Source: a virus (Duplodnaviria > Heunggongvirae > Uroviricota > Caudoviricetes). Taken from it: a DNA stretch of 64,000 nucleotides. Below are positions 1,739 to 2,738 of this stretch, piece by piece (the stretch's first letter is position 1; every line of letters starts with the position of its first letter). The translations under genes were made by a program, and so were the position numbers. Where the stretch lies: IMG/VR virus record IMGVR_UViG_648028025_000010, one strand, 5' to 3'. The notes beneath the pieces are model-generated. The model ran no database searches. It saw only the letters and a list, made by a program, of their open reading frames with translations, and was not told the origin of the DNA.

Positions 1739-2322
1739 CCCATCCTGTGGTTTCCTTGGCGTTTTCTAGGTTTTTTCAGATAGTTGCATTTTTTTAAAAG
1801 CATCCTAAGTTCGATCTCAGTGTCTATCTGGGGCCTATTTCTGTCCCATATATGCCCCAAAAAACTCCCCAACAGATAAGTAGTTTTTTCATGGATTTAC
1901 GCGTAAAATCAATAACGGCTGGAAATCATTCAATACTCGCACTATCGAAAAATTTACCAGCCAACCGCAGCACGTTCTTGCATAAGGTGTGTCTGCGGTT
2001 TTTCAACTATTCAGATACATCACTCCCATCACATTCATTCCTCCACATCAAAGGCATATAGGCTATATCACCTTGATATTTTTCTTTTTCAGATAAAAAC
2101 TGTTATCTATGTATACTTTTAAACCCAATCCGTGTAGAGTCTCTGCATAAGATAGTTTGCAGTTGCCGCTTCAGCTTGCGCCATAAACCGCCTGATTTTT
2201 GCTGCCACCTGTTAGCATTCCTGTATACCTGAAACGACAATGTTTATCTACGAACTTTAAGAACACCCAAGATAAAAATTGTCAACTATATCATATATAA
2301 CACATTACTAATTCGAGGCTAT

Positions 2323-2436
2323 ATGAACAGCATACTGATAATCACTTCTCTCCTTATCATATTCAGCATTTTTAGTCATGCCCTAATAAAATTAGGGATT
2401 GGCATATCCAATAACCCAGACAAAACCGATGTATAA
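2323..2436 (+). CDS. Small hydrophobic peptide (37 aa), hypothetical
   Basis: ATG preceded by a GAGG-type RBS. Translation [37 protein letters not shown] has one predicted TM helix. Not in the ORF track (below 60 aa). Confidence 0.3.
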
Positions 2437-2504
2437 GTCAACATATCCTGAATCAGACATACAATATCGCAATGAAAATCAATAATATTTTAAGGAATAT
2501 CTTC

Positions 2505-2738
2505 ATGAAATCAAAAGACACCCTAAAGTGGTTCCCTGCGCAGCTTCCTGAAGTAAGAATTATCCTAGGGGATGCTGTAGTGGAAGTAGCAAAACAGGGA
2601 AGACCTATCAATACCAGAACATTGCTTGATTACATTGAAGGAAACATAAAGAAAAAATCATGGCTGGATAACAAAGAATTATTACAAACAGCGATATCAG
2701 TTCTTAAAGACAACCAAAATTTAAATGGTAAAATGTAA
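2505..2738 (+). CDS. ydfK: Cold-shock-induced prophage protein YdfK/YnaE family
   Basis: Translation from the internal ATG (MKSKDTLKWFPAQLPEVRIILGD...) matches my recollection of Qin YdfK. AAGGA RBS upstream. Confidence 0.7.
   Translation: MKSKDTLKWFPAQLPEVRIILGDAVVEVAKQGRPINTRTLLDYIEGNIKKKSWLDNKELLQTAISVLKDNQNLNGKM

Follow-up and report, generated by a model that had tools for sequence, protein, structure and literature searches.

Does the short open reading frame (ORF) that precedes the cold-shock gene ydfK near the end of a prophage encode a genuine protein, and, if it does, is that protein a toxin, the incidental product of a regulatory leader RNA, or a membrane peptide with a role of its own? 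The window, by which we mean the whole stretch of DNA analyzed, comprises 64,000 nucleotides of a tailed-virus record (IMG/VR IMGVR_UViG_648028025_000010, Caudoviricetes), and the ORF occupies positions 2323–2436 on its plus strand, with an ATG at 2323, 37 codons, and a TAA stop at 2434–2436, giving a product of 37 amino acids. The original prediction described a plausible ribosome-binding site, a hydrophobic helix followed by a polar tail, and an AT-rich setting, and all three descriptions were borne out. A Shine–Dalgarno-like GAGG (2315–2318, plus strand) stands 4 nt 5′ of the ATG and is unchanged across all five aligned copies, the hydropathy maximum is 2.52 at residues 4–22 (Kyte–Doolittle, 19-residue window), and the GC content is 33–40% across positions 1650–3000. 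Structurally, the product is one hydrophobic helix plus a polar tail (GISNNPDK), and its AlphaFold2 model (mean pLDDT 88.7) contains a single helix spanning residues 2–30, with a short C-terminal tail modeled at lower confidence. Membrane insertion is predicted for this transmembrane-grade helix of approximately residues 2–30.

The ORF had been presented as unannotated, and this did not hold. RefSeq annotates ynfT, a "YnaM/YnfT family protein", at 2724–2837 of the K-12-derived locus in NZ_CP102378.1, coordinates that correspond exactly to window 2323–2436, and the gene is represented in Pfam, NCBIfam, and UniProt as well. YnfT scored 63.9 bits against NCBIfam NF041477 (curated cut-off 35) and 96.2 bits over the full length, residues 1–37 of 37, against Pfam PF23676 "Protein YnaM-like" (curated cut-off 27), and it matched PHROGs phrog_35882, which has no curated cut-off, at E 3e-20. 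Its sequence is identical to UniProt YNAM_ECOLI and occurs exactly on at least 999 contigs. By megablast, window 2100–2760 matches 2,808 of 5,426 complete E. coli genomes, and the RefSeq labels at each of the 29 sampled matches covering the ORF (97–100% of the query) read "ydfK: cold shock protein YdfK" together with "ynfT" or "ynaM: YnaM/YnfT family protein". Taxonomically, the family is restricted to Escherichia, Shigella, and Salmonella and is very narrow, with four representatives at E ≤ 0.001 among 1.84 billion proteins in an exhaustive representative search, and it forms two 90% clusters, one of Escherichia/Shigella and one of Salmonella. A DNA search with the ynfT region returned 13 phage records from a phage collection in which tblastn with the peptide had given no match, probably through low-complexity filtering, and the gene is uncalled in some deposited phage records, such as those of mEp460 and 2H10. 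We hold it nearly certain that the ORF at 2323–2436 is ynfT, the twin of ynaM, and that it encodes a genuine small membrane protein. The gene is thus already known: it bears a name, is covered by dedicated curated models in Pfam and NCBIfam, and had its protein detected in 2018. A reader working from sequence alone can, on this example, recognize a real gene for a small membrane protein.

Near-identical DNA also surfaced under distant taxonomic labels. Four contigs labeled as a Caldithrix MAG, an uncultured Alistipes, a Draconibacterium MAG, and a Chryseobacterium (L002, L004, L007, and L010) carry E. coli ynfT-ydfK DNA at 99–100% identity, and its presence almost certainly reflects contamination by E. 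coli or mis-binning in these public assemblies.

A first alternative is that the reading frame is incidental, an ORF that arose by chance in a leader whose function is purely that of a regulatory RNA. The passages on this region in earlier transcriptome papers do treat the DNA as a non-coding leader, and short ORFs are frequent in AT-rich DNA; indeed, 40 ORFs of at least 20 amino acids overlap window 1300–3500, so that a length of 37 codons is not significant by itself. Against a chance origin stands the detection of the protein from its chromosomal locus (PMC6001520). VanOrsdel et al. (2018; PMC6001520), who report SPA-tagging 80 short ORFs on the chromosome, list in their Table 1 the Qin copy (ynfT) and the identical Rac copy ynaM as tagged at their native loci and detected by immunoblot, and the tagged YnfT and YnaM are described there as detectable in growing and in stationary cells. 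The suggestion that the ORF could be a genuine small protein of Qin thus agrees with a detection published in 2018. The same study describes both ynfT and ynaM as "unidentified positives" in a tetracycline ribosome-profiling screen, a translation signal of the kind that the original prediction had proposed looking for. YnaM-SPA was also comparatively abundant in stationary phase (10.1101/511675).

Nomenclature complicates the retrieval of this evidence. Table 1 of the 2018 paper (PMC6001520) names the Qin copy "ynfQ", which is now ynfT, and in RefSeq and the 2024 y-ome paper ynfT is the gene starting at 1632890 and ynfQ is a different Qin gene; the renaming is a trap for text searches. The y-ome paper places ynfT among the uncharacterized genes, and we found no published report of a function, partner, localization, or phenotype for YnfT.

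YnaM and YnfT are products of a duplication that bears on how the profiling data are read. YnaM, from the Rac prophage of E. coli K-12, has the same amino acids as YnfT and lies directly upstream of the ydfK paralogue ynaE, within flanking DNA that is 98–99% identical over about 2.5 kb; it differs in that Rac is located at ttcA and the Qin-type ynfT at ydfJ, and in that the Qin-type and Rac-type ORFs of one K-12-type genome differ at three sites, all synonymous. More broadly, the Qin-type and Rac-type modules (ynfT/ynaM, ydfK/ynaE, pinQ/pinR, and tfa) are 98.9% identical over 2.56 kb (L005 versus L012, equivalent to window 1961–4503), and gene conversion between them has been reported (PMC4444293). 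In favor of a chance ORF, YnaM lacks a start peak in Ribo-RET and Onc112 profiling (Weaver et al., 10.1101/511675). Reads in that study were "mapped uniquely" with two mismatches permitted, and the Qin-type and Rac-type copies of a K-12-like genome do not differ between −53 and +23 relative to the ATG, so that the missing peak is explained most simply as a unique-mapping artefact of the Rac/Qin duplication. Another profiling study explicitly excluded ynaE/ydfK as near-identical. Since unique-mapping pipelines drop reads from ynfT/ynaM, ydfK/ynaE, pinQ/pinR, and tfa, caution is warranted when duplicated prophage genes are judged by such data.

Evolutionarily, the reading frame carries a frame-specific signature of selection. 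Salmonella phage 118970_sal3 contains a 37-codon ORF (L014, 3054–3167) upstream of a 77-aa ydfK homologue, and comparison of the window's ynfT with this copy yielded 14 synonymous and 8 non-synonymous differences, corresponding to a dN/dS of 0.09 (Nei–Gojobori), with 14 of the 22 differences in third codon positions. Read in the other two frames, the same alignment gave dN/dS values of 2.55 and 0.99. DNA identity between the window and the Salmonella phage is 82% in ynfT and 83% in ydfK, and it is 67% in the spacer that separates the two genes and about 50% further upstream of ynfT. The 37-codon ORF was intact in 113 of 115 sources, including all 98 loci that a pattern scan of IMG/VR returned, and the original prediction's proposal to look for conservation of the frame in homologous phages was thereby answered in the affirmative. 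These 113 intact copies represent 14 DNA alleles and 6 protein variants, with polymorphic sites distributed 6/5/17 over the first, second, and third codon positions in the full set and 2/0/9 among the E. coli-type copies. When the protein variants of Escherichia and Salmonella are aligned, no change is seen in 20 of 37 columns, among them K23 and, in the tail, G27, S29, N30, N31, P32, and K34. The substitution pattern shows that purifying selection acts on the amino-acid sequence of YnfT, with statistics that rest on essentially two clades, the family being so narrow that the signal derives from few independent lineages.

Small frame-breaking indels were seen in two copies, those of E. coli ECGI0523 (L011, 2819–2932) and S. 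flexneri SFBU0723 (L013, about 2785–2890). We had considered these as pseudogenized and downgraded that view, because the L011 version finds no match above 96.1% among complete RefSeq E. coli genomes and the sampled rows are all intact and annotated, which makes assembly indel errors at least as likely as decay. The two may represent uncommon decay of the gene or errors of long-read assembly.

A perfect 7-bp hairpin, CCCTAAT-AAA-ATTAGGG, lies within the ynfT coding sequence at 2381–2397. It is broken in the Salmonella allele, whose residues at this place are conservative replacements (ALIKLG versus AVIKVG); because the hairpin is lost and the peptide kept, it is probably not a selected RNA element.

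Taken with the curated family matches and the published detection of the protein, the substitution pattern is what sets ynfT apart from a chance ORF: differences between copies are frame-specific, and the ORF is intact in every one of the 98 copies on viral contigs. We therefore regard a chance reading frame in a non-coding leader as exceedingly unlikely.

Genomically, ynfT belongs to a unit with ydfK. Homology of the intact lambdoid phage mEp460 to the window starts at 1709, where the truncated ydfJ remnant ends (at 1720), and we place the prophage/host junction at about 1709–1720. The ORF had been described as lying in about 700 bp of AT-rich DNA between the att core and ydfK; the AT-richness stands, and the distance needs correcting, as the junction is about 790 bp upstream of ydfK, with ynfT some 600 bp in from the end of the prophage. 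In intact phages, the ynfT-ydfK module is located between the integrase/att region and the pin invertase and tail-fibre genes, a position that is typical for cargo genes. The gene ydfK itself (2505–2738, plus strand; 77 amino acids; Pfam PF27475; cold-shock-induced, PMC10654059) starts 68 nt after the ynfT stop codon, and the intervening spacer (2437–2504, plus strand) contains the ydfK Shine–Dalgarno sequence AAGGAA at 2493–2498. This spacer is of fixed length within each type, 68 nt in the 102 loci of the E. coli type and 74 nt in the 8 of the Salmonella type, and an intact ydfK-type ORF of 77 amino acids follows ynfT at the fixed spacing in 110 of 111 loci. RefSeq starts YdfK at the ATG at 2505, which AAGGAA precedes, and the Salmonella YdfK homologue and the 64%-identical homologues of Enterobacter are likewise 77–78 amino acids long. 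An in-frame ATG at 2472 would lengthen YdfK to 88 amino acids (2472–2738).

The two genes also travel together. The sole stretch that the window has in common with Salmonella phage 118970_sal3 runs from 2270 to 2742 on the plus strand (78.9% identity), that is, from 53 nt ahead of the ynfT ATG through 4 nt past the ydfK stop, and the tail genes of the Salmonella phage, which are of the baseplate-J type, differ from those of the window. The fixed spacer in 110 of 111 loci, together with this transfer into a Salmonella phage, identifies ynfT-ydfK as a discrete mobile two-gene cassette, which, as judged by sequence comparison, is exchanged between unrelated phages. The frame-specific selection signal and the mobile cassette are what the present analysis adds, and they give reason to study ynfT and ydfK together.

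Transcriptionally, the downstream gene has been the better described of the two. Cold strongly induces both ydfK and ynaE, and so does long-term stationary phase (PMC10654059), and in a 2026 RNA-seq study (PMC13058169) ynfT was 5.7-fold and ydfK 5.3-fold up, together with cspB, cspG, cspI, deaD, and rhlE. With respect to ydfK, ynfT is on the same strand, at a fixed distance of 68 nt, and co-induced, in a region that the literature calls the ydfK leader; no transcription start is assignable from the sequence. A relaxed sigma-70 scan of 1900–2325 gave weak candidates for a ynfT-ydfK promoter (8–9 of 12 matches), none of them conserved in the Salmonella cassette, and there is no terminator-like site between the two genes. 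Because no promoter can be assigned from sequence, we infer the co-transcription of ynfT and ydfK.

Two published promoter assignments were considered and set aside. The "constitutive sigma-70 promoter of ydfK" of Shimada 2014 (TTCCCA-16-GATAAT) maps to window 1318–1345, inside the ydfJ remnant and outside the prophage, about 1–1.2 kb upstream of ydfK, and is unlikely to be the promoter of the cassette. A sigma-54 site assigned to ydfK lies, by the table of the paper that reports it, ~2.6 kb upstream and is irrelevant.

The DNA that we read as a gene has a second literature of its own. PMC4444293, citing Raghavan, Sage and Ochman 2011, characterizes the ydfK 5′ UTR as a thermosensing RNA, and both ydfK and ynaE are reported to yield leader transcripts that end prematurely and co-immunoprecipitate with Hfq (Bilusic et al. 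2014; PMC5089854, PMC4152368). This work addresses the very stretch in question, which precedes ydfK and ynaE, and assigns it an RNA function, with the passages on the ydfK leader in these papers (PMC4444293, PMC5089854, PMC4152368) making no mention of an ORF; our results, in contrast, point to a peptide under selection and revealed no conserved RNA structure. In our literature search, no paper linking the ydfK leader RNA with the ynfT ORF was found. One stretch of DNA has thus been treated in two separate literatures, once as a thermosensing, Hfq-bound leader and once as a translated small protein.

A second alternative follows from the leader literature, namely that ynfT is a regulatory upstream ORF, in which the act of translation and not the peptide sets ydfK expression or the fate of the leader RNA through premature termination or Hfq binding, a role that could coexist with a function of the peptide. 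The described thermosensor, the terminated and Hfq-bound transcripts, the fixed spacing of ynfT to ydfK, and the near-equal induction of the two genes are all consistent with such a role, as is one predicted fold in which ynfT codons 10–11 (2351–2354) pair with the ydfK Shine–Dalgarno sequence. This pairing, however, depends on the assumed 5′ end of the transcript, is unchanged with temperature, and is only partly kept in Salmonella. In folds computed from 37 to 10 °C for three assumed sets of transcript ends, Shine–Dalgarno accessibility did not change consistently in the manner of a thermosensor; the region folds no better than shuffled controls (sense z −0.25, antisense z +0.05); and neither sequence-based folding nor the Salmonella comparison revealed a conserved or unusually stable RNA structure in the ynfT/ydfK leader DNA. 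As the dN/dS of 0.09 and the unvarying tail GISNNPDK show, the amino-acid sequence itself is selected, which would be unexpected if ribosome passage alone mattered, and the tagged protein accumulates stably (PMC6001520, 10.1101/511675). The lack of a terminator-like site between the genes weighs on the same side, as do distant ydfK homologues without such an ORF. A regulatory upstream ORF is therefore an unlikely account of ynfT. We consider it comparably doubtful that the leader RNA and ynfT/ynaM are the same RNA, a dual-function leader that would couple translation of a membrane peptide to temperature-dependent ydfK expression, for example, if ribosomes on ynfT were to remodel the leader or protect it from premature termination.

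The remaining alternative is a type I toxin. Enterobacterial and other toxins of this kind, such as Hok/Gef, Ldr, Ibs, TisB, ShoB, DinQ, ZorO, and PepG1, are small, have one hydrophobic helix, and are often carried on mobile elements. YnfT, as a small hydrophobic peptide with a polar tail in a prophage, resembles them, and it could be imagined as a membrane-depolarizing peptide whose translation is checked by a small RNA, antisense or overlapping; a similarity to PepG1 that is weak and below threshold (E 0.055) and one minus-strand promoter-like site (2514 to 2487) that could drive antisense transcription across ynfT would fit. The PepG1 score, however, reaches 13.1 bits where the cut-off is 70, and searches of NCBIfam, Pfam, and PADLOC matched no other toxin family. 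Regarding an antisense partner, which the original prediction had suggested searching for by way of its promoter, the seven promoter-like sites compare with 6.0 ± 2.7 in shuffled sequences, the minus strand has no terminator, no Rfam family reaches threshold over the ynfT region on either strand, and there is no excess structure, although sequence tests of this kind may miss an unconventional antisense RNA. YnfT further differs from the enterobacterial type I toxins in being readily detectable at steady state: the SPA-tagged Qin and Rac proteins were found in growing and stationary cells, with YnaM comparatively high, unlike tightly silenced toxins, though a C-terminal tag could blunt toxicity. 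The suggestion of a type I toxin-like peptide gained no support beyond small size and hydrophobicity, and we judge it very improbable.

Small non-toxic membrane peptides offer another comparison. MgrB, AcrZ, MgtS, and SgrT are single-helix inner-membrane peptides of 30–50 residues that bind a larger membrane protein, are induced under particular conditions, and are non-toxic. YnfT is likened to them only by analogy, and it differs in being carried by phages and confined to Escherichia, Shigella, and Salmonella. In our reading, ynfT opens a cargo cassette of two genes that adjoins the attachment site of lambdoid prophages and has also been transferred into an unrelated Salmonella phage, and ynfT would be co-transcribed with ydfK as part of the lysogen's response to cold shock and stationary phase. 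YnfT as the small membrane protein of the ynfT-ydfK cassette is, overall, a highly probable explanation of the locus. By analogy with other bacterial small membrane proteins, YnfT may reside in the inner membrane and there bind and modulate a larger membrane protein rather than kill the cell; that it is a non-toxic membrane modulator co-expressed with YdfK is a tentative proposal, which we hold at somewhat less than even confidence.

Other small proteins of Qin provide a further comparison. YnfR, YnfS, and YnfU (VanOrsdel 2018, Weaver 2019) are, like YnfT, products of short prophage ORFs that were found by tagging or ribosome profiling, and some of them adjoin cold-shock genes. They have no sequence similarity with YnfT, however, and YnfU is a zinc-knuckle protein and not a membrane peptide. 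YnfR-SPA is cold-induced, whereas the literature that we found does not report cold induction of the YnfT protein.

Finally, the partnership appears to be dispensable on the ydfK side. No ynfT-like ORF was found upstream of distant YdfK-family genes (55–64% identity) in Enterobacter, other E. coli, and Limnobaculum, which implies that YdfK does not need YnfT. Most of these distant PF27475 genes (L018–L024, with the exception of L019, L020, and L023) adjoin a divergently transcribed YnfU-like zinc-knuckle gene (PF23499), and those in Enterobacter and E. coli also adjoin a gene of the GH94 glycoamylase type encoding 2860 amino acids. YdfK and YnfU may form another recurrent pair, the second among the Qin-type small proteins.
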